Origin: Acidobacteriota bacterium
GTDB taxonomy: Bacteria; Actinomycetota; Acidimicrobiia; ATN3
DNA: 64,000 bases
Direction of reading: 5' to 3'
NCBI GenBank assembly: GCA_003577105.1
Contig: QEUQ01000009.1
Location: 1,326 to 65,325 of the forward strand
Below the pieces are notes generated by a model. It was not told the DNA's origin, searched no databases, and worked only from the letters and a program-made list of their open reading frames with translations. Positions 45,524-64,000 of this stretch are shown one piece after another. The stretch's first letter is position 1. Every line of letters starts with the position of its first letter. The translations under genes and the position numbers were made by a program.

Positions 45524-45993
45524 GCCGAGTGGTCTGGGCCTTGATCACCGGGAGCCGAGCCCGCGGCAATCTGCGCAATTGCCTCGATTGCCAACACATA
45601 TCCAATTGGTCCAAAGCCCGCGACCGACCCCGTCACCGCTGGAGCAACCACTGATGTTCGGCGCCAGTCCTCTCTCGCATGGATGTTCGAGAGATGTACT
45701 TCGACAACGGTCGATTCAGCCATAGCCAAGGCGTCAGCAAGCGCGTACGAGTAGTGAGTGAGTGCGCCGGGATTGATGACAATTGAAGCGCCGGCGTCGA
45801 TGGCGGCGTGGATGGCCTCTATAAGCGCGCCTTCATGGTCGCTCTGGAACCACGTTAGCTCGATGCCAACGGTCTCAGCGCGTGCCCGAACCAGCGACTC
45901 AATCTCGGCAAGAGTCAGATCCCCGTACTGGGCAGAATCACGCCACTCCAGGCGGCCAAGGTTCGGTCCGTTTAGGACATGGACCCGTTTCAA
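45520..45993 (-). CDS. aroQ: 3-dehydroquinate dehydratase, type II
   Basis: VLNGPNLGRLE...INPGALTHYS...HLSNIHARE motifs. Confidence 0.95.
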   Translation of the reverse strand: MKRVHVLNGPNLGRLEWRDSAQYGDLTLAEIESLVRARAETVGIELTWFQSDHEGALIEAIHAAIDAGASIVINPGALTHYSYALADALAMAESTVVEVHLSNIHAREDWRRTSVVAPAVTGSVAGFGPIGYVLAIEAIAQIAAGSAPGDQGPDHSA

Positions 45994-47081
45994 TTGATAC
46001 CCACTCCTTCGAGAGACTCGGTGATCGCTGCGTCGGGGACCTCAGACACAACTTCGGGTGCCCCGAGTTCCCTAAGCACCACGAAGCGCAGTCCTCGGCT
46101 GAACTTCTTGTCTTTCTGCATTACGTTCAAGACAGCATCGCGGTCGACGCCCTGGATCTCGACTGGCAGGTCCAACCTGCGCAACAACCGCCTAGCCCGA
46201 TCCACGAGATCCACCAAACCTAGCTCCCGACCAAGCAAGAGCGCGAAGACCATGCCGACCGCAATCGCCTCCCCATGACTCATCGAGTGACCGGTGACTG
46301 TCTCGAGCGCGTGGCCGAGTGTATGGCCGAAGTTCAAATGAGCGCGTGAAGCTTGCTCACGTTCATCGGCCTCCACTGTCTTCGCCTTGCATCGAATCGA
46401 CGTGACAATGAGCTCATCGAGAACATCTCCCTCAGGCTCGCTGATCTCCAGCAATTCGAGAATCCTCGGAGCTGCGATGAAGCCGTACTTGACTATTTCG
46501 GCGAGGCCACAATTGATTTCCCGCTGAGGAAGGGTTGTGAGGGCCCTCGTATCGGCCAAGACCGCTACCGGCTGATGAAAGGCGCCTACGAGGTTCTTCC
46601 CCGCTCTGAGGTTGAGTCCGGTCTTGCCTCCGATCGACGAATCGACCATTGCGAGAAGAGTGGTTGGCATCTGGATGAGCGGAATGCCTCGCATGAAAGT
46701 CGCCGCCGCAAAGCCAGCAACGTCTCCAACGACTCCCCCGCCCACGGCGATCACTGCGTCGCGACGATGCAAGCCACCGGCTGCCATGGCTTCTAACAAC
46801 TCAGAGACCGCCTCTGTGGACTTCGACGCCTCACCGCCGCCAATGCTGAGAAGCAGCGGCTCAGCTCCGGCTTCTCTCGATTCGCCAGCCGCCAGCTCCG
46901 GCCAGCTTTGAGGAACATGTGCGTCGGTGACGATCGCCACACGCTCGAGTCCATTTAGCCCACTGAGAACGTCGTGGAGACTTCCGGCTGCGTCCTCGCC
47001 AACCAAGACCGGGTATGTGCCAGAACTCACCGCGACATCAACCCGACGAAGAGGGCGCGCCTCACCTATCACGAGCGACAC
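45990..47081 (-). CDS. aroB: 3-dehydroquinate synthase
   Basis: GGGVVGDVAGFAAATFMRGI NAD-binding motif and metal-binding His region. Confidence 0.93.
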   Translation of the reverse strand: MSLVIGEARPLRRVDVAVSSGTYPVLVGEDAAGSLHDVLSGLNGLERVAIVTDAHVPQSWPELAAGESREAGAEPLLLSIGGGEASKSTEAVSELLEAMAAGGLHRRDAVIAVGGGVVGDVAGFAAATFMRGIPLIQMPTTLLAMVDSSIGGKTGLNLRAGKNLVGAFHQPVAVLADTRALTTLPQREINCGLAEIVKYGFIAAPRILELLEISEPEGDVLDELIVTSIRCKAKTVEADEREQASRAHLNFGHTLGHALETVTGHSMSHGEAIAVGMVFALLLGRELGLVDLVDRARRLLRRLDLPVEIQGVDRDAVLNVMQKDKKFSRGLRFVVLRELGAPEVVSEVPDAAITESLEGVGIN

Positions 47082-47676
47082 CTACCGCATCGAGAATTGC
47101 CTCGGCGAGCTCCCGAGTAGTCAACTCATCGACGTCGACAACGACGTCTGCGGCGCTTTCATAGACCTCACTTCTTTGCAGCAGAAGTTCCTCAAATCTA
47201 CGTTCTAGCGCGCCTGGACCTAGATTGATCGCGTCTTGGATTAATGGTCGCGTTCCAACGCTGGAGAAGTCTTCCATCGGGCCCGAATCGCTCATACCCA
47301 CATCGCTGCGGGCCCGCCTCGCGAGAGTTTCGGGCGTTGCTCGCAGATACACAACACTTCCGATTTCTCGCAGCGAGCACCCAGCACCTTCAGTCGTCAG
47401 GACCCCACCGCCAGTCGCCACAACCACTGGCTCCCGCCCGCGATTTCGAAGTGCCGAAATCGCCTTGGCCTCATGCGATCTGAATCCCGATTCTCCCTCT
47501 CGCTCCCAGATCTCTGGGATTCCGCTGCCTGCTAAGCGCTCGACTTCTTCGTCGGTATCAAAGAAGACGCCGCCAATTCGCTTAGCGAGCTCGCGACCGC
47601 AGGAAGACTTGCCGGAGTACATCATCCCGACCAGGACTAGGCTTGGGGCTGGCGACGCGCCATTCGCTGCGACCAC
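47062..47676 (-). CDS. aroK: Shikimate kinase
   Basis: Walker A LVGMMYSGKSS. The start is uncertain (a 40-nt overlap with aroC if 47676 is used). Confidence 0.9.
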   Translation of the reverse strand: MVAANGASPAPSLVLVGMMYSGKSSCGRELAKRIGGVFFDTDEEVERLAGSGIPEIWEREGESGFRSHEAKAISALRNRGREPVVVATGGGVLTTEGAGCSLREIGSVVYLRATPETLARRARSDVGMSDSGPMEDFSSVGTRPLIQDAINLGPGALERRFEELLLQRSEVYESAADVVVDVDELTTRELAEAILDAVGVARDR

Positions 47677-48812
47677 GCTTCGACCGCCTCCCTAAATTGG
47701 TCTAGAGAATCACCGCCAAACTTGCGAAGCATTTCCGATGCAATCACCAGAGCGACCATCGATTCTGCTACCACGGCAGCAGCCGGTACAGCACAAGAAT
47801 CAGTACGCTGCGTCAGTGCTGATGCCTCCTGGCCCGTTGCCATGTCGACAGTTCGCAGCGGCGGCGAGAGGCTTGCCAGCGGCTTCATCGCACCCCGCAC
47901 GACTATCGGTTCGCCAGTAGCCATCCCTCCCTCAATGCCTCCCGCCCTATTTGATGACCGCATCAGACGAGTGTCCGCGTCGCTGCCACCGAGTCCGATC
48001 TCATCGTGAGCCTGACTCCCCCTTGAAGCCGCCTGCTCCCAGGCATCCCCGATTTCCACGGCCTTAACCGCATTGACGCTGACGACTGCCGCGGCTAGCA
48101 GCGCGTCAAGCTTGCGATCCCAGTGGACATAGGAACCCACCCCCACCGGCACCCCAAAGGCGACAACCTCGAATACTCCTCCGAGCGTATCGCCCGCCTC
48201 CCGAGCCTCATCAACGACCTGAGTCATTTCCTTTGATGCTGCCTCGTCCGCGCAGCGCATCGGGTCGGCGTCGATCGCGCTGCCGGAGTCAGGGCCAATC
48301 CCAGTCTTGGATGCGAAGACGCCACCAACCGCGAGCACATGGCTGATGACGCTGACTCCTACCTCGCTCAGCAGCGACTTCGCGAGCGCTCCAGCAGTCG
48401 AGCGAGCAGCTGTCTCGCGCGCCGAAGCTCTCTCGAGAACATTGCGGGCATCGTCAAAGTCATATTTCAGCATTCCCGCCAAGTCGGCATGGCCGGGCCG
48501 AGGCATCGTTAGTGGCGAACTAGACGAACCGCTATCAGGGTTCATCTGCTCTGCCCACTTTTCATCGAATTCGACGTTCTCGATAACCGCTGAGACAGGC
48601 GATCCGAGAGTGCGCCCGTGTCGAACTCCCCCAATCAACGTAACCTTGTCGCTCTCTAGTGCCATGCGAGGGCCTCTGCCGTGTCCAAGGCGTCGGCGCG
48701 CAAGCTCCTCAACAACCATCCGCGATGAAAACGGAACCCCGGCGGGCATTCCTTCAATAATCACCACTAAGCCGCGGCCGTGCGATTCTCCAGAGGTTAG
48801 GTAGCGGAGCAT
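47637..48812 (-). CDS. aroC: Chorismate synthase
   Basis: MLRYLTSGESHGRGLVVIIEGMPAG N-terminus and conserved core. Confidence 0.95.
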   Translation of the reverse strand: MLRYLTSGESHGRGLVVIIEGMPAGVPFSSRMVVEELARRRLGHGRGPRMALESDKVTLIGGVRHGRTLGSPVSAVIENVEFDEKWAEQMNPDSGSSSSPLTMPRPGHADLAGMLKYDFDDARNVLERASARETAARSTAGALAKSLLSEVGVSVISHVLAVGGVFASKTGIGPDSGSAIDADPMRCADEAASKEMTQVVDEAREAGDTLGGVFEVVAFGVPVGVGSYVHWDRKLDALLAAAVVSVNAVKAVEIGDAWEQAASRGSQAHDEIGLGGSDADTRLMRSSNRAGGIEGGMATGEPIVVRGAMKPLASLSPPLRTVDMATGQEASALTQRTDSCAVPAAAVVAESMVALVIASEMLRKFGGDSLDQFREAVEAWSQRMARRQPQA

Positions 48813-49825: not shown

Positions 49826-50680
49826 TCACGGGCCTGCCCGGCCTGCGGTATTGCCGGTCTGACCTGTAGTCCCACCCTGCTGCGGCCCAGGCGATGCCGG
49901 GATCTGGCCAGGCTCAGTGCCGGCGCCCGAAGGAGGTTGGGGAACGGGCGAGTCCGAACGAGGTACATTCATCTGCCCCGAGCAGTTTCCGAGGTTGTTA
50001 GGCTCCTGTCCCTCGGAGAATCCAGGCTGCGGCGGAGTACATCCGGCTTCTGGCGGACCTGGAATCTGGCCGCGCTGAGTTGGTGATCCGTCTGCGGGGT
50101 AGATCAGAGCCAGGTCTGTGTCACTCGGCGTCCACGGAAGCCCAGAATTTGTCGCGAACATCCGCCCGGCTATTTGGCTGTTCAGCCCACCAGTCTTTGA
50201 ATCAACGCTTATCTGCAGCTGATCGACCACCACAGATCGCCGGAGCTTCTCAAGACGGATTAGGTAGTCAATGGTCTGGAAGTAACCGCCCTCAATGCTC
50301 ACCGCCAGCTTGATCTCGGCCGCCATCAGCCCGCTTGCCTTCGGCGCAGTAGGAATCGTTGGTTTCAGCGACATCCACTTCACGCCAGCTTGCCGGGCTA
50401 TGTCGTAGTTCGCCCATATGAACTCTGCCAGGTCGGGTGTGTCGGGCACGTTCTGCCTGAATTCAACGGTAGCTGCTCGGATCGACGTTTCGTTGCGCTT
50501 TAGCTCTTGGCGCCTCGCAATGGTGCCTTCCAGCTGCTGGGTTCGATCCTTCGCGTCCTGGAGCCTCTGCTGTTCCTTCGTGAGAGTAGACCCCTGACCT
50601 TGAAAGACGAAGAGGAACCACACCGCGATAATCGTTACCGCGACTACGGCACTGACTACAATTGGAAGATAGCGCTTCAC
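49826..50680 (-). CDS. pilO: Type IV pilus assembly protein PilO-like
   Basis: Single N-terminal TM helix, a coiled-coil region (QQRLQDAKDRTQQLEGTIARRQELK), then a PilO-like periplasmic domain. It immediately follows pilN. The start is uncertain (GTG at 50678-50680 vs 50749). Confidence 0.7.
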   Translation of the reverse strand: MKRYLPIVVSAVVAVTIIAVWFLFVFQGQGSTLTKEQQRLQDAKDRTQQLEGTIARRQELKRNETSIRAATVEFRQNVPDTPDLAEFIWANYDIARQAGVKWMSLKPTIPTAPKASGLMAAEIKLAVSIEGGYFQTIDYLIRLEKLRRSVVVDQLQISVDSKTGGLNSQIAGRMFATNSGLPWTPSDTDLALIYPADGSPTQRGQIPGPPEAGCTPPQPGFSEGQEPNNLGNCSGQMNVPRSDSPVPQPPSGAGTEPGQIPASPGPQQGGTTGQTGNTAGRAGP

Positions 50681-51519
50681 TTCGCACCTCCAGTGGTTGG
50701 GCGACTTGCGCCACCCGTAGCGCCCGCACCGTAGTAGGAGTGCCCGCATGAACCAGTTCCGGCGCCCGCCAGGTTGTCAAAGCCTCTAGCGGCACAGCGC
50801 CCCATCCATCCCCATGAGTACGGCGTGAGGTAGCTGGTTCCCTGGAAAGTCACAACCGGGAAGGACGTCGATCCTTCTCCTGAAGTCTCCTTCAGCGTCT
50901 GGCTCGTAATCCAAGCGTAGGTCATCGACGGCATGTTCCTATTGACTCGATATAGCCAATTGGCAACGTCTCGATGCGACTTGGCCGTAGCCGACACCTG
51001 CACAGTTCCGATCGGAGTCTTGTCACTTACCTTGATTTCCTTGCCTCCGCCGGAAGACTTCGGAGCAGTCGACGAGCTCGTCGATGGCTTAGCCGCCCCC
51101 CCGCTAATAGGCTTAGAAGCGGGCGCCTTCTTGCCAGCCTCTGGATCAACGAGGCCTTTGAAGGAAGTCAGGTAGACACCGTCAGGCATCGTCGCGGCGA
51201 TCTCCTGAAGCACCTTCGGCCAGCTGACTTCGTTCAGCCAGACGCTCTGGACGACCTTCTTCTGGTTATCGAAATTGCGCTGCAGCTCGTCAAGGTATTC
51301 CAGTTCGCGAGCTTTCAGCTCTAGCTCCTTGACCTTTTGTTCCTGCTTGTTCGCCTGGTCTCGCACGCTCTTCGCTTGAGCCGCTCTCAACAGCGTTATG
51401 ACAGCAAGTATTCCTATGAGCGCCGCCAGTCCGATAATTGCGTACACCCAAACCTGTCGCTGCCGGTTCTTCTCGCCAATCTCGGCTGGCAGCAAGTTGA
51501 TTCTGCGACGTGGCTCCAT
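50677..51519 (-). CDS. pilN: Type IV pilus assembly protein PilN
   Basis: Hallmark INLLP motif at the N-terminus, a TM helix, a coiled-coil and a periplasmic domain. The C-terminus is a Ser/Gly-rich low-complexity region. Confidence 0.8.
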   Translation of the reverse strand: MEPRRRINLLPAEIGEKNRQRQVWVYAIIGLAALIGILAVITLLRAAQAKSVRDQANKQEQKVKELELKARELEYLDELQRNFDNQKKVVQSVWLNEVSWPKVLQEIAATMPDGVYLTSFKGLVDPEAGKKAPASKPISGGAAKPSTSSSTAPKSSGGGKEIKVSDKTPIGTVQVSATAKSHRDVANWLYRVNRNMPSMTYAWITSQTLKETSGEGSTSFPVVTFQGTSYLTPYSWGWMGRCAARGFDNLAGAGTGSCGHSYYGAGATGGASRPTTGGAK

Positions 51520-51522
51520 CTG

Positions 51523-52584
51523 TCAGGCCTCCCCTAGTACTAGCCCAACAGCCACACTCATTAGCGGCTGTGCTTCGGCGAGCGCCTCTGTGGGCATTCC
51601 CAAGTTCGCGAGCTCTACAAACTGGAGCGGATGACCGGGTTCAACCGGAATTCCTAGTGCCGCCGAGAGCTTTTCACCAAGACCCGGGACACGCGATCCG
51701 CCACCGGACAAGATGATCCGTCCAACCGTTGCGGCGCTTGGCTGAGCCATGTAGAAGTCGAGTGAGCCTCTGATTTCATCGACAACCGCGGCGGCACGGT
51801 CATCAATAATTTGGACAGCTTGTTCACTGCCGGGCGGAGGCGCAGACCCTGGTACTGAGAGCTGCCTCTTCACCTGCTCGGCGGTCATGGGATCCATGGT
51901 GAGGCCCACCGACAGGGCCTCGGTGAAGTTGTTGCCGCCAAGTATCAGAATGCGAACGAAGCGTGGTTTCCCGTCTTCGTGGACGACGATGTTGGTGACT
52001 GAATGCCCGATATCAACGATGGCCTCGGCGGCGATCGGCTGGTCGAGTCCGTAGTCACTGACCAGCGACCTCAGCAGGGCCAGGGGGGAGAGATCGATCG
52101 CCTGTGGCGTCAACTTTGCGTATTCGAGAGCCCCGAGCATCTGCTCGATCATGTCGCGCTGCGCCGCAACGATGAGGACCCTCATCATTCGCTCGCCTTC
52201 AGGCCCTTGAATTTCGTCGAGAATCATGAAGTCGAGGATTGCCTCCTCAACTGGGATTGGAATGAATTCTTGTACCTGGAACTCCAGGGCGGCCCGCAGG
52301 TCCTCCTCGGCCATCCATGGAAGGTCCACCTGCCGTACAACTACCTTCTGGTTTGAGACTCCGAGGACGATGTTTCTCTTGCCCTTGAAGCCTGCCTGCG
52401 ACCACAGTCGTTGCAGCGCCTCACCCACTGCTGCAGGATCAGCTACCTCTCCGTCGCGCATCGCACCTGGTGGAACTTCGATTTGACCGAACTTCGTTAG
52501 TACCGGACGCGCCTTGCCAAGCATGAGCTCGGCGCCACGCACCGCGCTGGTTCCCAAGTCGAGTCCGATCACAGTCTTAGGCAC
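51523..52584 (-). CDS. pilM: Type IV pilus assembly protein PilM (actin-like ATPase fold)
   Basis: IGLDLGTSAVRGAEL N-terminus, a PilM/FtsA-like fold across 353 aa. Confidence 0.88.
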   Translation of the reverse strand: MPKTVIGLDLGTSAVRGAELMLGKARPVLTKFGQIEVPPGAMRDGEVADPAAVGEALQRLWSQAGFKGKRNIVLGVSNQKVVVRQVDLPWMAEEDLRAALEFQVQEFIPIPVEEAILDFMILDEIQGPEGERMMRVLIVAAQRDMIEQMLGALEYAKLTPQAIDLSPLALLRSLVSDYGLDQPIAAEAIVDIGHSVTNIVVHEDGKPRFVRILILGGNNFTEALSVGLTMDPMTAEQVKRQLSVPGSAPPPGSEQAVQIIDDRAAAVVDEIRGSLDFYMAQPSAATVGRIILSGGGSRVPGLGEKLSAALGIPVEPGHPLQFVELANLGMPTEALAEAQPLMSVAVGLVLGEA

Positions 52585-53179: not shown

Positions 53180-53989
53180 TCACAAGCCACCCAGGAGCTT
53201 GGTATATGCGCTCCAGATGCCGCTGCCAACAAATAGCGCTGTGAGCGATCCGAGCGCGAGATACGGACCGAAGGGTATCGCTTTACCGAACTCACCTCGC
53301 CCAATGACGATCAGAAACAGGCCAAGAACGGTTCCATACGCGAACGACAAGAGCACGCCCGTCAACAGGACGGCCGCCCCGCTGAAACCAAGCACCATCC
53401 CTATCAGCAGCGCCAAACGAACATCGCCAAAGCCCATCCACTTGGGATTTACTTCGTGGATCAGCCGAAGCCCGCCGCTGAAACCAACTGCGCCCAGCAA
53501 AGAGACCCCTACTGAACCAGGGCGCCCCTCCATTACCGCCGCGATAGCCAACAACGGCAAACACAGCACCAGCGACCACCACACGATCCGCGACGGAATG
53601 CGCTTGTGTTCCAGATCCGTGACAGTAATCGTCACCAGAGCAAAAGAAAAGACTAGATACAGCGGCAATTCCCAAGCTAGGCCGGTCTCAGCGGCAATTG
53701 CCCCGAAGATTCCCGCCATTGCGATCTCGGTGAACAGATAGCGAGCTGGAATGCGCCATCCGCAGCTGCGACACCGCCCCCGGAGGAGCAAGAAAGACGC
53801 TAAGGGAATGTTTTCCCACCACTCAAGAGGCCTACAGCAGTTTGGGCAACGCGACGCCGGCCGAATCACTGACCGGCCTTCCGGTACTCTCGACGCCACA
53901 ACATTGGCGAACGAGCCGAATGCCAGACCCAAAGCCCCGGCACCCACAGCCAAAACCGCCCGCGCACCTTCACTCGAAGACATCTTCAC
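53180..53989 (-). CDS. pilD: Prepilin peptidase (A24 family, PilD)
   Basis: N-terminal tetracysteine zinc motif (CPNCCRPL...CRSCGWRI) and polytopic membrane domain with catalytic Asp motifs (DLEHKRIP, GFGDVRLAL). Confidence 0.88.
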   Translation of the reverse strand: MKMSSSEGARAVLAVGAGALGLAFGSFANVVASRVPEGRSVIRPASRCPNCCRPLEWWENIPLASFLLLRGRCRSCGWRIPARYLFTEIAMAGIFGAIAAETGLAWELPLYLVFSFALVTITVTDLEHKRIPSRIVWWSLVLCLPLLAIAAVMEGRPGSVGVSLLGAVGFSGGLRLIHEVNPKWMGFGDVRLALLIGMVLGFSGAAVLLTGVLLSFAYGTVLGLFLIVIGRGEFGKAIPFGPYLALGSLTALFVGSGIWSAYTKLLGGL

Positions 53990-54109: not shown

Positions 54110-54649
54110 TCAGTGCCTCCAACCTGCTGAAGAATCCGTGCTAGCACCGGCTCCCGTGCAAGGGAACTCGAGTGCGTGACTACCATCACCAGTGGCTCCG
54201 CCACCGCCCTCATGGTCATAGCTGGTTCCGGTTCCGTTACCGCCATCGACCTTTGAGTCGCAAATGGAGAACTCATGCTGATGGGCGCTGAGCACAGTGA
54301 GTACAACCGTGCCGTCGACTGCTTGGGTACCTGTCGGCCCCGAGACAACGCCAACTTCGTTCTGACCCGTTGACGGGCCACCAGGCACCCACGTCAGAGC
54401 CTGCTCGATCCCCGCGAGGGTCGGCTGGTCCTGCGTATAGGCCTGAGAGTCGGTGTAGTACACGTTCTCAGCGGTCAATGCATTCCGGACGCTTGTCTGA
54501 GCTGCCCTGTCCTGGGCACGTTCCCGTGCGCCGAGGAAGGTCGGGATCGCGATAGCAATCAGGATGGCAATGATGAGCACCACGATCATGAGCTCGATGA
54601 GGGTGAAGCCCTCGTCGCGACCGGTAATTGATCCACGCATTTTCTTCAT
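54110..54649 (-). CDS. pilA: Type IV pilin (major pilin, class III signal peptide)
   Basis: Leader MKKMRGSITGRDEG followed by FTLIELMIVVLIIAILIAIAIPTF (prepilin peptidase site G|F, Glu+5). Strong RBS GGAGGTG 7 nt upstream of the ATG at 54647-54649. The upstream 42 codons in the ORF track are not part of the gene. Confidence 0.88.
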   Translation of the reverse strand: MKKMRGSITGRDEGFTLIELMIVVLIIAILIAIAIPTFLGARERAQDRAAQTSVRNALTAENVYYTDSQAYTQDQPTLAGIEQALTWVPGGPSTGQNEVGVVSGPTGTQAVDGTVVLTVLSAHQHEFSICDSKVDGGNGTGTSYDHEGGGGATGDGSHALEFPCTGAGASTDSSAGWRH

Positions 54650-54734
54650 ATAGTTCACCTCCTTCCCCAAAGAGGATTTGCATGCAGGCCAAAGCCTGCC
54701 CGCACACCTATCATCGGCGCCTACGGGCGGAATC

Positions 54735-54751
54735 TTGAGAACGGTTCTCAA
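54735..54751. promoter_or_regulatory. Perfect 17-bp palindrome TTGAGAAC-g-GTTCTCAA about 85 bp upstream of the pilin start codon; candidate operator
   Basis: Exact 8-bp inverted repeat with a 1-nt spacer in the pilC-pilin intergenic region. Confidence 0.5.
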
Positions 54752-54788
54752 TTTTCTCGACCAAACCGTTTCCACCTCGGGAATCTGC

Positions 54789-55949
54789 CTATTGGATCAA
54801 GTTCACAATATTGAACATTGGCATATAGAGCGCGATGACCATGCCACCGACAGCAATACCCATGACTGCGATCAGAAGCGGTTCGATCAGCGATGTCAGC
54901 GCGTCGACCGCCGCCGAAACCTCTTGGTCGTAGAACTCAGAGATCTTCAGAAGCATGGTGTCAATGGCACCCGTCTCCTCACCCACCGCCATCATCTGAA
55001 CCACCATCGGTGGGAACACCGAATGCTCCAAGAGGGGCCGTGCAATTGACTCACCCTCCCTCACGCTGGTTTGAACATCGATAATCGCTGCTGAAATCAC
55101 TCGATTGCCTACCGTTTGGCTGACGATATCAAGTGCTTCCAGAATCGGAACACCTGACTTGATCAGCTCAGCCAGGGTTCGAGTGAAGCGCGACAGGGCG
55201 ACTTTGTGAAAAAGGGGGCCGAAGATCGGAACCTTGATCAGGAATGTGTCCCAAATCATCTCCCCTTTGTCGGTCTTCTTCCAGGCCCGCAGCCCGAAGA
55301 CCGCACCAATGCTCAAGATTGCCAGTAGCCACCAGTAGTTCTTGACGATTTCCGATACGCCAATGAGCATCTGCGTAGGCGCCGGCAACTTGCCTCCGAG
55401 CTCGTCATAGAGCTTCTTGAACATCGGTACAACAAAGATCAGCATTGCGCTCACGATAAGCAGAACCATCACAAACACAACTACTGGGTACGTCATTGCG
55501 GACTTGACTTTGCCTCGCAACTCGACTTGCGATTCGATAGTCTCGGCGATCCTCACGAGTACGTGATCGAGGTTACCCCCGATCTCCCCGGCCCTTACCA
55601 TTGAGACATATAGATCATTGAATACTTTGGGGTGCTTCTCCAGTGCCCCGGAAAGCGATGACCCGGTTTCCACATCGTCACGGACCAGCCTGACGACATC
55701 AGCAAGGGTCGCAAACTGGCGGCTGAAGATCGACAGATCCTTCAGCTTTACGCGATTGCCACCAATAGAGATCTCCTTCTTGAGACCTCCGGCATCTTTC
55801 TCATCGATGGAGATAGGTATGTAACCCATCTCGCGTAATTTGGCAGCGACAACAGTGGTGTTGTCGGCGTCGAGCTCACCCTCGACGATTTGTCCCTGTT
55901 TGTCCCTTACTTTGTATACGAAAGTTCCAGCCACCGCTGCTCCTCTCAA
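54789..55949 (-). CDS. pilC: Type IV pilus inner-membrane platform protein PilC (GspF/T2SS-F family)
   Basis: Duplicated T2SS-F domains with three TM segments across 386 aa. Confidence 0.9.
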   Translation of the reverse strand: MRGAAVAGTFVYKVRDKQGQIVEGELDADNTTVVAAKLREMGYIPISIDEKDAGGLKKEISIGGNRVKLKDLSIFSRQFATLADVVRLVRDDVETGSSLSGALEKHPKVFNDLYVSMVRAGEIGGNLDHVLVRIAETIESQVELRGKVKSAMTYPVVVFVMVLLIVSAMLIFVVPMFKKLYDELGGKLPAPTQMLIGVSEIVKNYWWLLAILSIGAVFGLRAWKKTDKGEMIWDTFLIKVPIFGPLFHKVALSRFTRTLAELIKSGVPILEALDIVSQTVGNRVISAAIIDVQTSVREGESIARPLLEHSVFPPMVVQMMAVGEETGAIDTMLLKISEFYDQEVSAAVDALTSLIEPLLIAVMGIAVGGMVIALYMPMFNIVNLIQ

Positions 55950-57586
55950 CCGCGCCCGAGAAGGCGCATCAGGTCATCCTCGTTGGCGCAGCGCTCTCGC
56001 GCCAGGTCCAAAGAGATCCGCCCTGCTTTGACCAGGTCCGCAAGGGACTGGTCCATAGTCTGCATGCCGAATCGACCGCCAGCCTGCATGACTGAATAAA
56101 TCTGATGGGTCTTGCCCTCACGTATCAGATTTCGGACTGCTGGCGTAGCAATCAGAACCTCCACTGCTACCACGCGCCCTCGGCCATCTGCGGTCTGGCA
56201 AAGCTGCTGGGTGCAGACGGCCTGCAGTGAGGCGGCAAGCTGGACGCGCACTTGCTGCTGCTGATGCGGCGGAAAAACGTCGATAATTCTGTCAATTGAC
56301 TGCGGGCAGTCCTGCGTGTGGAGCGTGCCAAAGACCAAGTGGCCGGTCTCGGCAGCCGTGATTGCCGTCTGGATCGTCTCAAGGTCGCGCATTTCGCCGA
56401 CCAGGATCACATCTGGATCTTGGCGAAGAACGCGTTTGAGCGCATTCGCGAAACTGAGGGTGTCTTCTCCAACCTCGCGCTGGTTCACCACGGCGCGCTT
56501 GTGCGCGTGAAGGAACTCGATCGGGTCCTCAACAGTCATGATGTGAACGGGGCGTTCCCGGTTGATGATGTCGACGATCGATGCAAGAGTTGTTGACTTG
56601 CCTGAACCTGTAGGTCCCGTGACGAGCACCAGGCCGCGAGGTAATGCGGCAAAGGAAGTCAGGACTGGCGGCACCCCCAGCTTTTCGAGGGGAAGGATAT
56701 TCATCGGGATCACTCGCATGACCGAGCCGATCGAGTCCCGCTGGAAGAAAACATTGACCCTGAAGCGGGCTTTGCCTGGCAACGGATGGGACATATCGAG
56801 TTCCATCTCAGCCTCAAGCTTTTCGCGCTGTTTCTGCGTGAGAATCGCGTAGATCATCTTGCGAAGGGGCCCGGGCTTGAGGATCGGGAAGTCCGTTAGC
56901 GGATACAAGTCGCCGTGGACACGCACCACCGGATGCGTTCCCACCGTCAGGTGGAGGTCCGACGCGCCCTTCTCGAGGACTATCTCGAGCAATTCGTTGA
57001 CATGAATGTCTGCGGCGTCACGCTCCGGCTGTGCGGCCGGCGCCTGTTCCTTTACTCCCTGTGCAGCTTCAAGTAGGCGTTCATCTGCAACTGATACGTC
57101 GCCGGTCTTCAGACTTCCGTGTGTCTGAGGTGCTGCCGCAGCCGCTTCTGCCGCAGCGCCGTGCACCTGCTTGATGACGGCGGCAATCTCTCCCTTGTCG
57201 GCGAGGGCTGGAATCACCTGCCAACCGACACCCTGCTCAATTGCCTGAATAGCGTCTGAATTGTGTGGATCGCCCATCGCCACAAGAAGCTTGTCTTCTT
57301 CAAAGGCAACTGCAATCAAGTTGAACCGGACACACAGTTCCGGTGGAATCGCCGTAACCGCGTCGGGGTGGAGCGGTTGAGAAGCAAGATCGACAAACCT
57401 GAGGCCGCTTTGTTCAGCCAACGCGCCGAGAATCTGCTTCTCGCTCAGCCGGCCTTCATCGGTGAGCAACTTGAATAACGGGGTGCCTGTCGCCTGCTCC
57501 CGCCCGAGGGCATCCACCAGCTCTTCGCTGGAGAGAAGCTGCTTCTTTACGAGCAAGTCGCCTAGACGTTGAGACGCCGCGGACAT
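55946..57586 (-). CDS. pilT: Twitching-motility retraction ATPase PilT with an N-terminal GspE-N/MshEN-like extension of about 190 aa
   Basis: PilT core: Walker A GPTGSGKSTT, Asp/His boxes, and the PilT-specific AxRNLIRE motif (PAVRNLIREGKTHQI). The N-terminus contains RLGDLLVKKQLLSSEELVDALGREQ, resembling the T2SS-E N-domain/MshEN fold. Confidence 0.85.
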   Translation of the reverse strand: MSAASQRLGDLLVKKQLLSSEELVDALGREQATGTPLFKLLTDEGRLSEKQILGALAEQSGLRFVDLASQPLHPDAVTAIPPELCVRFNLIAVAFEEDKLLVAMGDPHNSDAIQAIEQGVGWQVIPALADKGEIAAVIKQVHGAAAEAAAAAPQTHGSLKTGDVSVADERLLEAAQGVKEQAPAAQPERDAADIHVNELLEIVLEKGASDLHLTVGTHPVVRVHGDLYPLTDFPILKPGPLRKMIYAILTQKQREKLEAEMELDMSHPLPGKARFRVNVFFQRDSIGSVMRVIPMNILPLEKLGVPPVLTSFAALPRGLVLVTGPTGSGKSTTLASIVDIINRERPVHIMTVEDPIEFLHAHKRAVVNQREVGEDTLSFANALKRVLRQDPDVILVGEMRDLETIQTAITAAETGHLVFGTLHTQDCPQSIDRIIDVFPPHQQQQVRVQLAASLQAVCTQQLCQTADGRGRVVAVEVLIATPAVRNLIREGKTHQIYSVMQAGGRFGMQTMDQSLADLVKAGRISLDLARERCANEDDLMRLLGRG

Positions 57587-57720
57587 AGAAAAATGGCCCT
57601 CCCGGACACGATTGTTTGCATCAGATCATCGACAGAGCGAATTCGAATCTTGACCTGAGGACAGTTAAGGGTATCAGCACATCTCACCCCCATGTGCGCA
57701 AACAAGCGTTGGTCAGTGAG

Positions 57721-59400
57721 CTAGACCACCACTCTCATGATCTCGTCGATTGCAGTTATTCCCAGTCGTACCTTGGCCAGGCCATCGAGACGAAGCGTCT
57801 TCATCCCTTCCATGACGGCTATCTTCTTCATCTCTTCAGACGTCCTGTGCTCTACGACCATTCGCTCGATCTCTTCGCTCAAGATCATGATCTCGTGGAG
57901 CGCGACTCGCCCTCGATATCCCGTATTCGAACAGGACTTGCACCCTGCGGGCTTGTATATCACCGGTAATTCCTCTTCTTCGTCAAGCGGCCACCCGCAC
58001 TCGACGAGTGCCTCCTCTGTCGGCTGATAGGGCTCCTTACACTTCTCACATAGCCGCCGTGCAAGGCGCTGCGCAAGCACGCAATCCAGCGCCGAACCAA
58101 CTAGGAACGCCTCGACGCCCATCTCGAAAAGGCGTGTAGCGGCAGACGGCGCGTCATTTGTGTGAAGCGTCGAAAGGACCAGGTGACCGGTCAAGGCCGA
58201 CTCAATCGCGATTGTCGCGGTCTCTTTGTCTCTGATTTCACCCACCATCATGATGTCGGGGTCGCAGCGCACCAGCGATCGAAGGGCCGAAGCGAATGTC
58301 AGTCCAGCTCGCGTGTTCACCTGGATTTGAGAAAGGCCCGACAGCCTGAACTCAACTGGATCTTCGACTGTCATGACGTTCTTCGCGTCGTCGTTAATAA
58401 CGTTGAGAATCGAGTAGAGGGTCGTGGTCTTGCCTGATCCTGTCGGACCTGTTGCCAGTATCGCTCCGTATGGCTTGTTGTATGCGTTTGCCAGCTTCTT
58501 CGCGTTGTCCTCAAGTAGCCCCAGTTGTTCAAGCGGCACAATGCCTGCCTGCTTGTCGAGGATTCTCATGACGAACTTCTCGCCCCAAACCGTCGGAACG
58601 CACGCGGCGCGCAGGTCGATCTCACGCCCCGAGATACTCATTGAGATCCGGCCATCTTGAGGAATTCGCCGCTCGGCGATGTCCATGTCCGACATGATCT
58701 TCAGGCGGCTTACAAGCGAGTTCTGCACGCTCTTAGGGCTCCGCATATGTTCGTGCAAAACTCCGTCAATGCGATAGCGGATTCGAAGGTCCTTGGCCTG
58801 GGGCTCAATGTGGATGTCCGATGCCCGATCCTGTACAGCTTGGGCGATCAGGGTGTTTGCAAGCTTGACTATGGGAGCGTCTTCAACGACCTCTGTCAGT
58901 CCCTCAAGGGCATCGCTATCGTCGTCGCCTGCGGCAATCTCGCCAGTCAGCGCCTCGACGTCGGTCTCCATGCGAGCCATCTTGTCGAGCGCATCCATGA
59001 CTGCGGCCTGCGTGGCGACGACGACTTCGAGTTCTCGCTTAGTGACGCGCGCGACGTCGTCACGTGCAATCACGTTCTGGGGATCGCTCATTGCGACGAT
59101 GAGCCGTTCCTCATCGAAGCCGATCGGTATCAGCGAATACCGGCGAGCGATGTTGTCAGGTACGAGTGAGGCCGCAACCGGATCGATCCCGTACTCAAGA
59201 AGATCGACGAACTCATAGCCTGCCTGGTCGGCAAGGATCGCCAGAAGGTCATCCTCGGTGAGGATTTCCATTTCGATCAGGACGCGGCTGAGCGCCTTCC
59301 CGGTCTCTTCGACCTCGGCCAATACCTCGTCGAGTTGCGTTGCATCGATGATGCCTTCCTCGACAAGAAGCATTCCGAAACTGGTGACATCTTCGGACAA
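57721..59400 (-). CDS. pilB: Type IV pilus assembly (extension) ATPase PilB/GspE family
   Basis: N-terminal MshEN-like motif (FGMLLVEEGIIDATQLDEVLAEVEE), Walker A GPTGSGKTTT, and a tetracysteine zinc motif (CEKCKEPY...CKSCSNTGYRGR). Confidence 0.9.
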   Translation of the reverse strand: MSEDVTSFGMLLVEEGIIDATQLDEVLAEVEETGKALSRVLIEMEILTEDDLLAILADQAGYEFVDLLEYGIDPVAASLVPDNIARRYSLIPIGFDEERLIVAMSDPQNVIARDDVARVTKRELEVVVATQAAVMDALDKMARMETDVEALTGEIAAGDDDSDALEGLTEVVEDAPIVKLANTLIAQAVQDRASDIHIEPQAKDLRIRYRIDGVLHEHMRSPKSVQNSLVSRLKIMSDMDIAERRIPQDGRISMSISGREIDLRAACVPTVWGEKFVMRILDKQAGIVPLEQLGLLEDNAKKLANAYNKPYGAILATGPTGSGKTTTLYSILNVINDDAKNVMTVEDPVEFRLSGLSQIQVNTRAGLTFASALRSLVRCDPDIMMVGEIRDKETATIAIESALTGHLVLSTLHTNDAPSAATRLFEMGVEAFLVGSALDCVLAQRLARRLCEKCKEPYQPTEEALVECGWPLDEEEELPVIYKPAGCKSCSNTGYRGRVALHEIMILSEEIERMVVEHRTSEEMKKIAVMEGMKTLRLDGLAKVRLGITAIDEIMRVVV

Positions 59401-59529: not shown

Positions 59530-60717
59530 TCACGACTCTCTTGTGACCTTGCCTCGCGATGGGCGGCCGACGAACATATCGGGCGCACGCCTTGGCCGCG
59601 CATACAGCTTCTCCGGCATCGACGGCCCGGCAACAAGCTCGCTCCACTGAAAGAACAATCCAAACAACGGATGGTCTGCTTCCAGGAAAACTGCCGATCC
59701 GTCGCGGAACCCCAAGACGACGTGGCGCACATCCGGTTCAGCGGCAAAGGCAGGGGGCCCGACTCTGGGTGGTGGCAGTTCGTTGCGATCCGACACCTGC
59801 CCGGGTGTCGGTACCGCAGGAGGAGACGCGACTCTTTCCGCGCTCTGATCTACTTCCTGTTCGACCGATGTGCGAGCTATTGCAGCCGGTGGAGGTTGCT
59901 CGGTTTCGAGCGTGACCTCGGGTAGCGGAGTGACCGGACCGGTGTCGCGCTCGGGTGCGACTGATGGCAGTGGCGGGATCGGGCCGGTGTCGCGGGCAGC
60001 GACTACTGGTGGCGGTGGAGTGACCGGACCGGTGTCGCGCTCGGGTGCATCGAGATGTGCGGCGGCGTTTGCGAGCGGCGAATCCATGAGGGATCCGCGG
60101 GGCCCATCACCTGCCATGTGCACCTCGGGGCCCGGTGCCGAATCGTCATCGTCCGCCTCGCCGAAATCAAGGTCATCCAGGATTCCTGCTAGTGGCTGAG
60201 TTCTGTGCTCCAGGATCGAAGACGCGGCCGGCTGGGGAGCCACAGGAGCCCCGGGAGATGGAACGGTCCAGGTCTGCCTTTGCTCTTGGCTGCTGAATTC
60301 GTACGGATCGACCTGCGACCCAGGGAAGTCCTGCTGGACCTGCCCGTAAACCGCTGGCAGTGGAGGAGGCGGCGGCGGCGCAAAGTGGGCCGGGGGCGGA
60401 GCATAAGGCGATTCGGCGTGAGTGCCGACCTCATATCCACCGGCCATGGCTCGGTCAACAGACGCTTGTGTGGATGCAGGCAAATTCCACTCGGGGGTGG
60501 GTGGGACAACCGAACTTGGAGACGCGAGAGAGTATCCGCTCCCGTGTGGCTCATCAGATGTTCGGCTAAATAAATCCTCAAGCTGAGACGAGGGCTCTGC
60601 GGAGAGCGCTGGCCCATCGGGAGGCGGGAAATACCCGGGGGCAGTCGGCACGCCTTCGGCGGCCGTGGAGGGGTCTTCCTCACCTTGGGGCGGGAGGCTG
60701 AAATCCATCCCAGTCAC
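59530..60717 (-). CDS. Proline-rich, predicted disordered protein with tandem PERDTGPVTPLP repeats and a ~70-aa C-terminal globular domain. Last gene of the GTPase module upstream of pilB.
   Basis: 395-aa ORF dominated by P/A/S with low complexity. It carries three or more imperfect repeats (APERDTGPVTPPPP / ARDTGPIPPLPS / APERDTGPVTPLPE). The C-terminal segment is VRHVVLGFRDGSAVFLEADHPLFGLFFQWSEL. It starts 5 nt after the GTPase gene ends. Confidence 0.55.
   Translation of the reverse strand: MTGMDFSLPPQGEEDPSTAAEGVPTAPGYFPPPDGPALSAEPSSQLEDLFSRTSDEPHGSGYSLASPSSVVPPTPEWNLPASTQASVDRAMAGGYEVGTHAESPYAPPPAHFAPPPPPPLPAVYGQVQQDFPGSQVDPYEFSSQEQRQTWTVPSPGAPVAPQPAASSILEHRTQPLAGILDDLDFGEADDDDSAPGPEVHMAGDGPRGSLMDSPLANAAAHLDAPERDTGPVTPPPPVVAARDTGPIPPLPSVAPERDTGPVTPLPEVTLETEQPPPAAIARTSVEQEVDQSAERVASPPAVPTPGQVSDRNELPPPRVGPPAFAAEPDVRHVVLGFRDGSAVFLEADHPLFGLFFQWSELVAGPSMPEKLYARPRRAPDMFVGRPSRGKVTRES
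59905..60050. repeat. About three imperfect tandem DNA repeats of ~44 bp (GGAGTGACCGGACCGGTGTCGCGCTCGGGTGC-type) inside the Pro-rich gene
   Basis: Near-identical units at ~59925-59957 and ~60012-60046, with a degenerate copy between them. They encode the PERDTGPVTPLP protein repeats. Confidence 0.7.
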
Positions 60718-60722
60718 ACCCC

Positions 60723-61301
60723 CTATGTCGCCGCAGCCGCGGGGGCACTCTCATCGAGCATTGCCAATACCGCGTAGAGGAGAGCCAGAAGTACGTCCTT
60801 GGCGCTCTGGCGGCTGACAGCTTCACACGGAACCACAACCTCATCGCCCTTCAGGCCGAGGCTCTTACGGACAGCCTCTATGGCGCCCTCGTCACCGGTC
60901 GCCCGGTTTGCTGCAACCACAAAAGGGACCTCCGCTAGACCCTTGAAGTATTCGAGGATCTTTCTGGCCTCATCCAAAGACTCCTCGCGAGTCACGTCCA
61001 CCATGACGATGAAACCAAGCATGCCCCGCGCGAGGACATCCCACATGAAGTCGAACCTCTCCTGCCCCGGGGTACCAAACAGATATAGGACTATCTCATC
61101 GCCCTCAAGCTGAAATGTGATCTTTCCCCAGTCCATTGAGACCGTCGTCATGCCCTTAACAGCCCGGCTACCGTCTGAGACCGGCTGCTCTGACGAGAAG
61201 AGCTGTAGCTCCGAAAGAGCACTGATGAAGGTTGTCTTGCCAGCGGCGAATGGACCCGTGACGACAACCTTGACCGAGGTGCTATTCCCCGGCGCAGCCA
61301 C
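60723..61301 (-). CDS. Ras-like small GTPase of the MglA/CvnD family
   Basis: KVVVTGPFAAGKTTFI P-loop, TPGQERF switch II (DxxGQ-like), and a (V)DVT region. Length and architecture parallel MglA and the conservon CvnD. It starts 2 nt after the DUF4388 gene ends. Confidence 0.8.
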   Translation of the reverse strand: MAAPGNSTSVKVVVTGPFAAGKTTFISALSELQLFSSEQPVSDGSRAVKGMTTVSMDWGKITFQLEGDEIVLYLFGTPGQERFDFMWDVLARGMLGFIVMVDVTREESLDEARKILEYFKGLAEVPFVVAANRATGDEGAIEAVRKSLGLKGDEVVVPCEAVSRQSAKDVLLALLYAVLAMLDESAPAAAAT

Positions 61302-61303
61302 GC

Positions 61304-62686
61304 TCAGAGCTCCTTGACTCCGGAAATCAGGCGCTGAATCAAGGCCTTGTTCACGTCTCCGCTCTTGATGCTTGGCGGCCCGTGCGGCTCAGAGTCGACT
61401 GCCGCCACAGCGTTGCCCGCTGTTGACGCTCGCGCCCTTAGCGGTGGACCGTCCTGGTTGCGCGGACCGCTATCGCCGGATCCGCCTTCTCCTGAAACCC
61501 ACAACTGGCTGAACTCCTTTGCCAGTGCGGCAGTGTTCACGCGGCGGCCCCCTGTGGGGCTACCGCCTCGACCTTTTTTTGAACCACCACCGGAGGACTC
61601 GGCTGCCTCACCGCCATCAGGCGTATTGGAGAACCCGAGCAGGTCGTCGAGAAGGTCAGCGTCGTCGCTGACCTTGGAGACGGAGTCGGCCGAGAGACTC
61701 TCAAACGCGGAGCCCTCCCCCGAGTCGTCTTCGTCGAATGAAAGTGCCTCGGCAGCCTCAGCAAGAGACAGTCCGCCGAGTCCGAGATCGTCTTCTGCTG
61801 CCTCTTCTTCAGCCTCTTCCTCGAACTCCTCGACCTCTTCCTCGAACTCCTCGACCTCGGCCTCTTCCTCGAATTCCTCGACCTCGGCCTCTTCCTCAAA
61901 TTCCTCGACGGCTTCCTCGTCTGGTTCCTCGGACTCAAGTTCCGGTATTTCTTCGACTTCTTCTTCATACGCCGGAGCTCGTGTGCCGGAAGCCTCGCCA
62001 ACCTCAACAAGCCCTGCGCTCACGAGTCCGTGGAGTACCTGGCAAGTCTTGAACTCGCCTTCCCCAAGAGCCTCCGCAACGTCTGTGACCCTTCGGGTAC
62101 CGTCCACGGCCGAGATGATTCGCCAATCCTCTCGGCTCAATGTCACTTCCAAGTGATCCTCTGGGAGGCTGCGAACAAGGCTGAGACTGCAATCCACCGA
62201 CGGGATCGACTCCTTGATGATTTCCCACTCATCAAGGCGGCGGCGGGCCTCTGCAATCAACGGGTCAACTTGCAGCGGGAAGATCGAGCCGATCGTGTGA
62301 GTCTCCTCAGCCCTGAAGTCGAAGCGACCTTGCTCCCACCGGAACAAGTCAAAGATCGCCTCTTCGATCCTCTCTCTGATGAAGTCCTCAAACGCAGTTC
62401 TGTCGATATCTGAGTTCTTAAGGAGCGCCTCTCCCACTGACTCCTTTCGACCCGCCTTGGCCACGGCGGCCTTCCAAGCATCAGCTTCGACGATCCCCGA
62501 ACGAACCAGACTCTTACCTAAGTCGTCTCCCTTCTTGGCGGTCGCGTAGTAGATGTCGCCCTTCTGAAAAAAGACCGTCCCTGATCCGGTGCTGCCTCTT
62601 AGGTGAAGCGCACCCGTCTTGTCCCGCGAGAGGAGCTGGAACACGTCGGGAAGAGTGAAATCGTCAAGGCTTCCCTGTAGTGCCAT
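61304..62686 (-). CDS. DUF4388/PATAN-domain protein with a long acidic (EEFEEEAEV)n repeat linker and a Gly/Ser-rich C-terminus
   Basis: N-terminal GSLDDFTLPDVFQLLSRDKTGALHL matches the DUF4388 (PATAN) signature. The central section has more than ten acidic E/F/V heptad-like repeats. The C-terminus is low complexity. Confidence 0.7.
   Translation of the reverse strand: MALQGSLDDFTLPDVFQLLSRDKTGALHLRGSTGSGTVFFQKGDIYYATAKKGDDLGKSLVRSGIVEADAWKAAVAKAGRKESVGEALLKNSDIDRTAFEDFIRERIEEAIFDLFRWEQGRFDFRAEETHTIGSIFPLQVDPLIAEARRRLDEWEIIKESIPSVDCSLSLVRSLPEDHLEVTLSREDWRIISAVDGTRRVTDVAEALGEGEFKTCQVLHGLVSAGLVEVGEASGTRAPAYEEEVEEIPELESEEPDEEAVEEFEEEAEVEEFEEEAEVEEFEEEVEEFEEEAEEEAAEDDLGLGGLSLAEAAEALSFDEDDSGEGSAFESLSADSVSKVSDDADLLDDLLGFSNTPDGGEAAESSGGGSKKGRGGSPTGGRRVNTAALAKEFSQLWVSGEGGSGDSGPRNQDGPPLRARASTAGNAVAAVDSEPHGPPSIKSGDVNKALIQRLISGVKEL
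61814..61912. repeat. 27-bp tandem repeat (CTCTTCCTCGAAyTCCTCGACCTCGGC), about 3.8 copies, inside the DUF4388 gene; encodes the acidic EEFEEEAEV repeats
   Basis: Direct inspection: consecutive 27-nt units with 1-2 mismatches, plus one truncated 21-nt copy. Confidence 0.75.
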
Positions 62687-63288: not shown

Positions 63289-64000
63289 CTATTCCGCGCG
63301 TCGCTCCGCCAGCGCAGCTGTAGCAGCAGCCTCCATAGTAGCCCGTGGCGGGCTATGGCCTGTCCAAATCTCAACCTGGATCGCAGCTTGGGCTATGAGC
63401 ATTCCCAATCCCGACTCCGCACTAATACCAGCCCTTCGGGCCGATTTCACAAGCGCCGTCTCCGTTGGCTGATATACGAGGTCATAAATGAATGACTGCC
63501 CGCCGAACCATCTACAGTCAACAAGTTCGTCGTCAGGGCCCAGCTGCGGGGTAGCACTAATGATCAGTTCGGCTTCGCCAGCCGCACTTCGAATGTCTTC
63601 AGCGCCGACTGGCGCAATCTCACCTATAGCAATGGAGCGCTCACTTGCGGCTTCCGTCAGGTCCCGTGCAATCGATGCCGCGGCTTCCGTTCGGCGCGCC
63701 ACGATTTCGACTGAACGAGCTCCGGATGTGGCAGCTCCCCACGCGGCAGCCCTAGCCGCTCCACCGGCACCGAGAATCAAGACTTTTCGCCCGGCGATGG
63801 GAATTCCGGCGGCCGCTTCGAGTCCCTCGATCAGTCCGGCGACATCGGTGTTGTCACCGACTAGCTCTCCGGAATCCCAGGAAATGGTATTGACCGCCCC
63901 GACAACCGTCGCCGTCTCCGTCAAGCGGTCAAGGTGAGCAATGACTTCAACTTTGTGCGGAATCGTCACTGAGAGTCCGGCAATTCCCAGAGCCCGCATC
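63289..64000 (-). CDS. aroE: Shikimate dehydrogenase, C-terminal ~236 aa; the N-terminus lies beyond the window end
   Basis: SVTIPHK substrate motif and a GAGGAARA NADP-binding glycine-rich motif. The ORF is open to the window edge. Confidence 0.85.
   Translation of the reverse strand, partial: MRALGIAGLSVTIPHKVEVIAHLDRLTETATVVGAVNTISWDSGELVGDNTDVAGLIEGLEAAAGIPIAGRKVLILGAGGAARAAAWGAATSGARSVEIVARRTEAAASIARDLTEAASERSIAIGEIAPVGAEDIRSAAGEAELIISATPQLGPDDELVDCRWFGGQSFIYDLVYQPTETALVKSARRAGISAESGLGMLIAQAAIQVEIWTGHSPPRATMEAAATAALAERRAE

Follow-up and report, generated by a model that had tools for sequence, protein, structure and literature searches.

A PilT-family retraction ATPase with an N1D of the extension-motor type in an Acidimicrobiia type IVa pilus cluster

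The window analyzed here, a 64,000-nucleotide stretch of contig QEUQ01000009.1 (assembly GCA_003577105.1, positions 1,326 to 65,325) from a member of the Acidimicrobiia, encodes a PilT-family ATPase, predicted to be a pilus retraction motor, whose canonical core is preceded by an N1D (also termed MshEN or GSPII). The gene for this N1D-PilT, hereafter the long PilT, occupies 55946..57586 on the minus strand in the open reading frame (ORF) listing (546 aa, ATG start, stop codon included). Both parts belong to known families, but their combination contradicts a stated rule, according to which the N1D distinguishes extension from retraction ATPases (2024 review, PMC11656802). The founding paper on MshEN contains no mention of PilT (PMC5013675), and no description of an N1D-bearing PilT was found in the literature covered (open-access papers and bioRxiv preprints), an absence that is not proof. 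The architecture can be seen in the databases, which hold precomputed Pfam results for hundreds of entries, and the automatic annotation "PilT/PilU family ATPase" hides the extra domain. Little is understood so far about the role of the N1D, owing to its flexibility and its poor resolution in structures; its presence on a retraction motor in a whole class and in a second phylum breaks the rule and provides a natural experiment on this domain.

The motor core and the gene start

The motor core of the long PilT, comprising N2D and the C-terminal domain (CTD) at residues 196-546 (55949..57001, minus strand), scored 487 bits on the TIGR01420 (PilT/PilU) model against a cutoff of 319.1, with residues 196-537 covering profile positions 2-342/343, whereas the PilB model TIGR02538 gave 222 bits, under its cutoff of 675.65. 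The core was also modeled confidently by AlphaFold2 (AF2). Pattern matches on the minus strand located a Walker A motif (GPTGSGKS, residues 324-331, 56594..56617), an Asp box (EDPIE at residue 353), a Walker B motif with the catalytic Glu (DPDVILVGEMRD, residues 390-401, 56384..56419), a His box (TGHLVFGTLH at residue 414), and the PilT signature AVRNLIRE (residues 483-490, 56117..56140). A C-terminal motif of the AIRNLIRE type separates PilT from PilU. Pattern searches found no AVRNLIRE in the neighboring PilB and no tetracysteine zinc motif (CxxC...CxxC) in the long PilT; the neighboring PilB carries the zinc motif at C451, C454, C487, and C490. These sequence features identify the long PilT as a genuine PilT-family ATPase and predict a function as a retraction motor. 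The sequence-only reading, an earlier description of this DNA made without database searches, had proposed a 546-aa PilT with a canonical core, and this assignment stands.

The long PilT resembles the canonical type IVa PilTs of Pseudomonas aeruginosa, Geobacter metallireducens, and Aquifex (TIGR01420) in its N2D and CTD, its Walker A and B motifs, its Asp and His boxes, its AIRNLIRE-type motif, the lack of a zinc finger, and the position of its gene between pilB and pilC. Canonical PilT, however, is ~345 aa in length and has no N1D, whereas the long PilT has 195 additional residues that form a folded MshEN/GSPII domain and a flexible linker.

These additional residues do not stem from an incorrectly called start, as had also been argued from the letters of the sequence. 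A GGAGG ribosome-binding site (Shine-Dalgarno; 57598..57602, minus strand) was read in the sequence 11 nt upstream of the pilT ATG. In our homologue set (120 listed homologues; motif statistics on 121 aligned clade sequences), the same start Met occurred in 97 of the 121 aligned sequences, and all 120 homologues among the matches listed, 54-98% identical and 514-588 aa in length, combined PF05157 with PF00437. A start-codon artefact was rejected on the basis of the ribosome-binding site, the common Met, and the two domains in 120/120 listed homologues.

Fold of the N-terminal domain

The N1D (residues 1-145, 57152..57586, minus strand), as delimited by AF2, Foldseek, and phmmer, consists of two subdomains. 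The first is a four-helix bundle holding the 53-residue tandem motif (residues 7-59, 57410..57568, minus strand), which matched the NCBIfam "c-di-GMP motif" model NF053729 with 40 bits against a cutoff of 38 and was aligned to MshE with HMMER. The second is an alpha/beta subdomain (residues 61-145, 57152..57406, minus strand), which matched Pfam MshEN PF05157 with 49.8 bits against a gathering threshold of 23.1 and is the structural equivalent of the GspL-binding N1E of GspE. In an AF2 model of residues 1-195, the predicted local distance difference test (pLDDT) score exceeded 93 over residues 1-140, and helices at residues 3-14, 20-33, 37-43, and 49-59 were followed by a three-strand alpha/beta unit, which is the topology published for MshEN (PMC11731258).

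Structural and sequence comparisons agreed with this assignment. The best Foldseek match in the PDB was MshE with cyclic di-GMP (c-di-GMP; 5HTL, E=7e-10, probability 1.00), and the next matches were PilF GSPII-A, -B, and -C, Xanthomonas citri PilB-N (from its structure with PilZ), and XpsE-N. The N1 domains of GspE/EpsE, known from structures with GspL/EpsL (4PHT, 2BH1), matched the alpha/beta subdomain alone and weakly (probability, 0.95-0.97; E-value, about 0.2). A phmmer search of the PDB with residues 1-195 scored PilF GSPII-C at 52 bits, MshE-N (5HTL) at 50 bits (E=3e-12), and the PilB of Geobacter at 49 bits. Collectively, the Pfam score, the model confidence, and the Foldseek ranking bear out the earlier proposal of an N-terminal MshEN/GspE-N-like domain.

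The N1D is joined to the core by a disordered linker rich in Ala, Glu, and Gln (residues 146-195, 57002..57151, minus strand), as judged from pLDDT and composition, which was poorly conserved in the homologue alignments. In the full-length AF2 model, a confident N1D (residues 1-143) and a confident core (residues 190-546) were separated by linker residues 145-188 with a pLDDT below 50. Because a disordered linker parts two confident units in this model, the N1D is, on the predicted structure, tethered by a linker of ~45 residues rather than packed on the motor.

The nucleotide-binding motif of the PilT N1D

In MshE of Vibrio cholerae, the prototype of the c-di-GMP receptors of this family, one guanine (Gua1) is held by Arg9, the backbone amides of Gly11/Asp12, Leu25, Leu29, and Leu39, the other (Gua2) is held by a mirror set of residues, and Gln32 and Gln61 bind ribose and phosphate; the substitution G11I abolishes c-di-GMP binding, and replacement of the turn Gly lowers it considerably (Wang et al. 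2016, PMC5013675). The relaxed binder pattern applied here to each half, [RKPN]hGxxhhxx[GAS]hhxxxxhxxxhxx[QNKRYWST], and the Gua1 positions (I-1, I-3/4, I-17, I-21, and II-2) were taken from the same work (PMC5013675).

The HMMER alignment of the window PilT to MshE residues 9-61 was gap-free over the 53-residue site and retained the exact 24+5+24 register, with motif I at residues 7-30 (RLGDLLVKKQLLSSEELVDALGRE), a spacer at residues 31-35, and motif II at residues 36-59 (PLFKLLTDEGRLSEKQILGALAEQ). Deviations from the consensus were found at I-10 (Q16), I-24 (E30), II-1 (P36), II-3 (F38), II-7 (T42), and II-11 (R46), the first of which matches the earlier observation that the central Gly of motif I is replaced by Gln. 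The Gua1 pocket (R7, G9/D10, L23, L27, and L37) was canonical in the window PilT and in 112 of the 121 clade sequences, and Gln59 was kept in 107. In the Gua2 pocket of the window PilT, Pro36 stands in the place of Arg and Phe38 in the place of Gly, and across the clade no sequence had Gly at II-3 (Ser in 50, Pro in 49, Ala in 18, and Phe in 2). Position I-24 was never Gln (Glu in 106/121; an acceptable residue in 4/121), and the position of the turn Gly in motif I was occupied by Lys, His, or Gln everywhere except in 8 sequences. In these tests, neither relaxed half-motif was passed by any of the 121 sequences, the window PilT failing motif I at Q16 and E30 and motif II at F38, T42, and R46; the MshE control passed both halves. 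In three divergent long PilTs (L014, L015, and L035), RLA occurred instead of RLG, and the terminal Gln was gone.

Set against MshE (5HTL), the PilT N1D thus shares the two-subdomain fold, the register, the six positions of the Leu cluster, and the Gua1 pocket, but it is carried by a retraction-type rather than an extension-type core, its Gua2 pocket is without Arg and Gly, and Gln32 and the turn Gly18 of MshE correspond to Glu30 and Gln16. Thermus thermophilus PilF, whose GSPII-C domain is the best sequence match of the PilT N1D, offers precedents for some of these deviations. GSPII-C has Pro at II-1 and still binds c-di-GMP (dissociation constant [KD], 460 nM), and Glu at position 24 has been introduced into GSPII-B as the engineered mutant Q190E, in which the KD rose from ~6 nM to ~800 nM at pH 8.5 and was ~40 nM at pH 4.5, a pH-dependent effect. 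No binding of c-di-GMP is seen for GSPII-A, in which a good motif is paired with a degenerate one. PilF differs from the long PilT in being an extension ATPase with three tandem N1Ds, whereas a single N1D is found here on a retraction motor. From these comparisons, the PilT N1D is probably not a canonical high-affinity c-di-GMP receptor; weak, pH-dependent, or altered-specificity nucleotide binding is possible, given that the conservation of one pocket goes far beyond the demands of the fold alone.

The PilB of the window also carries an MshEN N-domain, as the sequence-only reading had noted; this domain was recognized by both Pfam and NCBIfam and is 35% identical to the PilT N1D. Its residues 7-59 contain neither guanine pocket (motif I begins with S-F-G and motif II with A-L-S), Glu occupies the turn position of motif II, and the motif as a whole is more degenerate than that of PilT; by the published criteria, this PilB is not predicted to bind c-di-GMP. 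The further suggestion that c-di-GMP controls both the extension and the retraction motor was therefore not upheld: the window PilT, like all 121 clade sequences, fails both relaxed half-motifs, and PilB has neither pocket. The GGDEF protein cited in its favor does exist (18543-19811), with an intact cyclase signature (RTGD-x5-GGDEF, of the RxxD-x5-GGDEF form); its gene lies 36 kb from pilT and indicates no more than that the organism probably produces c-di-GMP.

Distribution and origin of the fusion

The named homologues of the long PilT were from Acidimicrobiia, Acidimicrobiales, or other Actinomycetota metagenome-assembled genomes (MAGs), usually annotated as "PilT/PilU family type 4a pilus ATPase". 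Among GTDB species genomes, fusions within a single ORF were found in Acidimicrobiia (L006, L014, L015, and L035), in Egicoccus (L002), and in a MAG labeled "Actinomycetes" (L001), and the core alone, without an N1D, was found in Solirubrobacterales, Rubrobacter, Thermoleophilia, Nocardioides, and Cellulomonas, among others. The core of the long PilT shares 57-69% identity with short PilTs from other classes of Actinomycetota, indicating that the N1D was added to an ordinary PilT. Among homologues, N1D identity was about 35%, compared with about 60% for the core, and many N1D positions were invariant or nearly so. The fusion traces back to the ancestor of a large Acidimicrobiia/Nitriliruptoria lineage and is subject to selection.

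A search with a profile built from divergent MshEN-PilT representatives recovered another large clade, made up of ~540-aa proteins that combine PF05157 and PF00437; its few named members are Armatimonadota. In this Armatimonadota-type clade, the pattern of pocket conservation was the opposite: Gua1 was lost (Q-L-A; canonical in 0/81), and Gua2 was kept, with Trp at II-1 in 75/81. Since the two clades keep opposite pockets, what recurs is the domain and not the full ligand site. In pairwise BLAST comparisons, the N1D of the window PilT was nearer to PilB N1Ds (70-97 bits) than to the N1D of an Armatimonadota-type PilT, and the reverse comparison gave a like result. As each PilT N1D lies nearer to PilB N1Ds than to that of the other clade, these pairwise scores suggest two independent captures of a PilB-type N1D by PilT. 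An Omnitrophota locus (L054) was rejected as a third phylum with the fusion, since its MshEN ORF lies separately downstream of a short PilT and the two had been joined by tblastn. The ORF in question (7159-7800, plus strand) is a stand-alone 214-aa ORF with two MshEN-like matches, located between the short pilT and two pilB-like genes.

The addition of accessory domains to the N-terminus of PilT seems to be recurrent. Among the best 150 PilT representatives at 50% clustering, 78 had at least 90 residues before the core, and a Pfam scan of 75 of the extended ones gave MshEN in 19, DUF4388 in 3, and HEAT repeats in 3. The modules other than MshEN were DUF4388/PATAN, for example in the 1027-aa P0289, and HEAT repeats, and P0122 is also among such representatives. 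Many Pro-rich N-terminal extensions without a Pfam match were not counted as accessory domains, as they may be mis-called starts in high-GC genomes. Tandem PilT-PilT fusions of ~710-745 aa with two complete cores were also observed (P0124, P0125, P0127, P0128, P0132, and P0279-P0315), the named members being Myxococcota, Polyangiales, and Eremiobacterota.

Two further observations concern individual pilT loci. In two nanopore-derived Acidimicrobiaceae MAGs (L009, 5979-7540; L021, 5997-7660; plus strand), the N1D and the core of PilT lie in different frames, so that the gene is either truly split or affected by a frameshift error. An additional, short PilT/PilU-like paralogue is encoded upstream of pilB in three Acidimicrobiia/Actinomycetes loci (L021, 955-2150; L035, 1296-2420; L036, 1470-2630; plus strand); these paralogues scored 375-397 bits on the core hidden Markov model, versus 538-587 bits for the main PilT core.

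Proposed role of the N1D

The reading that we favor, and to which we give slightly better than an even chance, is that the N1D on PilT is an address or adaptor module for docking at the pilus base or on regulators. A PilT motor has here acquired the N1D normally found on the extension motor PilB, and according to this scenario the domain would allow PilT to dock on, or stay tethered to, the PilM ring/PilC base that recognizes the PilB N1D. Alternatively, the PilT N1D may be seen by the regulators of PilB, such as the PATAN protein encoded upstream. Two hexamers with similar addresses would then compete or hand over to each other, and this would control the exchange between extension and retraction. 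If the N1D is indeed an address label for the PilM/PilC base or for PATAN regulators, both motors would carry one label, a point of relevance to the mechanism of motor exchange.

An adaptor role is suggested by the analogy of GspE and GspL, by N1Ds with degenerate motifs that bind proteins, and by the binding of PATAN regulators to PilB1. A contact between the PilB N1D and PilM has been proposed by analogy with that between GspE N1 and the cytoplasmic domain of GspL in the type II secretion system (PMC11656802), and PilM is a plausible docking partner of N1Ds because the GspL domain bound by GspE N1 is a PilM homologue. XpsE, X. citri PilB-N with PilZ, and PilF GSPII-A are protein-binding N1Ds that do not bind c-di-GMP. 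Together with EpsE N1 solved with EpsL (2BH1), the domains XpsE-N (2D27), X. citri PilB-N (7LKM), and PilF GSPII-A (9G1W) share the fold of the PilT N1D and degenerate nucleotide motifs, and all are documented or inferred protein docking modules at the base of their machines; they differ in that all are parts of extension or secretion ATPases and none belongs to a PilT-type motor. The regulators in question are the PATAN proteins of Synechocystis, which bind the N-terminal region of PilB1 and not PilT1 or PilT2 (bioRxiv 10.1101/2021.06.11.447907) and whose PATAN domains bind both PilB1 and PilC.

Several points weigh against a docking role. It is drawn by analogy from GspE and GspL, and the Foldseek matches to GspE N1E are short, with weak E-values of about 0.2. 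The solvent-exposed Arg7, Gly9, and Gln59 are kept in more than 88% of the 121 sequences, along with all six Leu-cluster positions, a conservation that ligand binding, more than pure docking, would lead one to expect. The NF053729 score, moreover, barely exceeds its cutoff. The PilT of P. aeruginosa reportedly reaches the machine without an N1D, and it is thus not evident why an address domain should be required. Finally, a PATAN-GTPase pair specific to long PilTs was considered and rejected, since the pair also occurs beside short PilTs (L007 and L010).

The most serious competitor to an address module, which we nevertheless consider rather unlikely, is a working c-di-GMP receptor through which the second messenger would gate the retraction motor directly, for instance through sequestration or release of PilT. 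Much of the evidence above is what such a receptor would show: the best structural match is MshE with its ligand, the motif model is passed with exact spacing, Gua1 and Gln59 are kept in most of the clade, Pro at II-1 is tolerated in PilF GSPII-C, the PilF mutant Q190E still binds, and the window contains the gene for an intact GGDEF cyclase. Opposed to this, the relaxed motif is passed by none of the 121 sequences and RLG is lost in the divergent long PilTs. The II-3 Gly is gone in all 121, with Pro, which has no backbone NH, in 49, and the equivalent G11I change abolishes binding in MshE; replacement of the turn Gly at I-10 lowers binding, and several deviations are combined here. PilF GSPII-A, where one motif is good and the other degenerate, shows no binding. 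Domain fusions are common, and the motif analysis weakens the c-di-GMP interpretation, although a functional half-intact nucleotide site would be the first direct second-messenger input into PilT.

A related and more speculative model, which we regard as improbable, treats the PilT N1D as an asymmetric sensor, in which Gua1 (in Acidimicrobiia) or Gua2 (in the Armatimonadota-type clade) is kept, the other pocket is remodeled in a conserved manner, and retraction is gated by an altered signal. Such a signal would be, for example, 3',3'-cGAMP, pGpG, a guanine mononucleotide, or c-di-GMP itself bound in a pH-dependent manner via Glu30. If true, this would be a mode of control described for no PilT.

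It is very unlikely, in our estimation, that the protein is something other than a dedicated retraction motor, with the N1D making its PilT-type core an additional extension motor or a motor with both functions. The N1D has been regarded as the discriminator between extension and retraction ATPases (PMC11656802), the PilT of V. cholerae is reported to be capable of promoting the extension as well as the retraction of MSHA pili (PMC9815625), and some related loci contain the extra short PilT paralogue (L021, L035, and L036). The core, however, scores more than twice as high on the PilT/PilU model as on the PilB model, AVRNLIRE is present and the zinc tetracysteine absent, a complete PilB is encoded immediately upstream, and the 64-kb window contains no short PilT. 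An annotation or assembly artefact, or a decaying remnant of recombination between pilB and pilT, is effectively refuted: the frame splits in L009 and L021 and the faster evolution of the N1D would fit it, but the ORF is intact with a good ribosome-binding site, 120/120 listed homologues from independent assemblies are alike, the fold is predicted with confidence, many N1D positions are invariant, and the architecture recurs in a second phylum.

The pilus cluster and its neighbors

The long PilT gene belongs to a cluster of type IVa pilus genes, all on the minus strand, as identified from the ORF listing and Pfam. Immediately upstream lies pilB, encoding the 559-aa extension ATPase (57721..59400, minus strand; Pfam/NCBIfam), the stop of which is separated from the long PilT start by a gap of 134 bp. 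On the other side lies the platform gene pilC (54789..55949, minus strand; ORF listing and Pfam), whose TTG start overlaps the stop codon of pilT, an arrangement suggestive of translational coupling. The cluster continues on the same strand with genes for a pilin (54110-54775), a prepilin peptidase (53180-53989), and PilM, PilN, and PilO (49826-52584), of which the stator protein PilM (51523..52584), the homologue of the GspL cytoplasmic domain, matched Pfam PilM_2 with 158 bits. The pilus cluster sits among genes of the shikimate pathway, with a shikimate dehydrogenase fragment (63289-63999), chorismate synthase (47637-48812), and 3-dehydroquinate synthase (45990-47081) beside it, all on the minus strand.

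Upstream of pilB, also on the minus strand, are genes for a 395-aa Pro-rich protein with no Pfam match directly adjacent to it (59530-60717), a Ras-like small GTPase (60723-61301), and a PATAN (DUF4388) protein (61304..62686; Pfam PF14332, 100 bits). In a survey of 6-kb flanks by single-sequence phmmer, which has limited sensitivity, PATAN, sometimes with the GTPase, was also found upstream of pilB in L001, L002, L007, L009, and L010. By analogy with the Synechocystis proteins, the PATAN protein is a candidate N1D-binding regulator and a lead to follow, and the PATAN-GTPase set may serve actinobacterial pili as a module for polarity or regulation.

Multiple N1Ds were observed on PilB-type proteins of related genomes. 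A stop-to-stop ORF of the PilB type in Rubrobacter (L032, 1723-5000, plus strand) gave three N1D/GSPII matches, at residues 13-156, 201-344, and 540-674; a triple GSPII arrangement has been reported only in Deinococcus-Thermus (JBC 2024 PilF paper). Two N1D matches were found in the Acidimicrobiales/Actinomycetes PilBs of L035 and L036, likewise as stop-to-stop ORFs.

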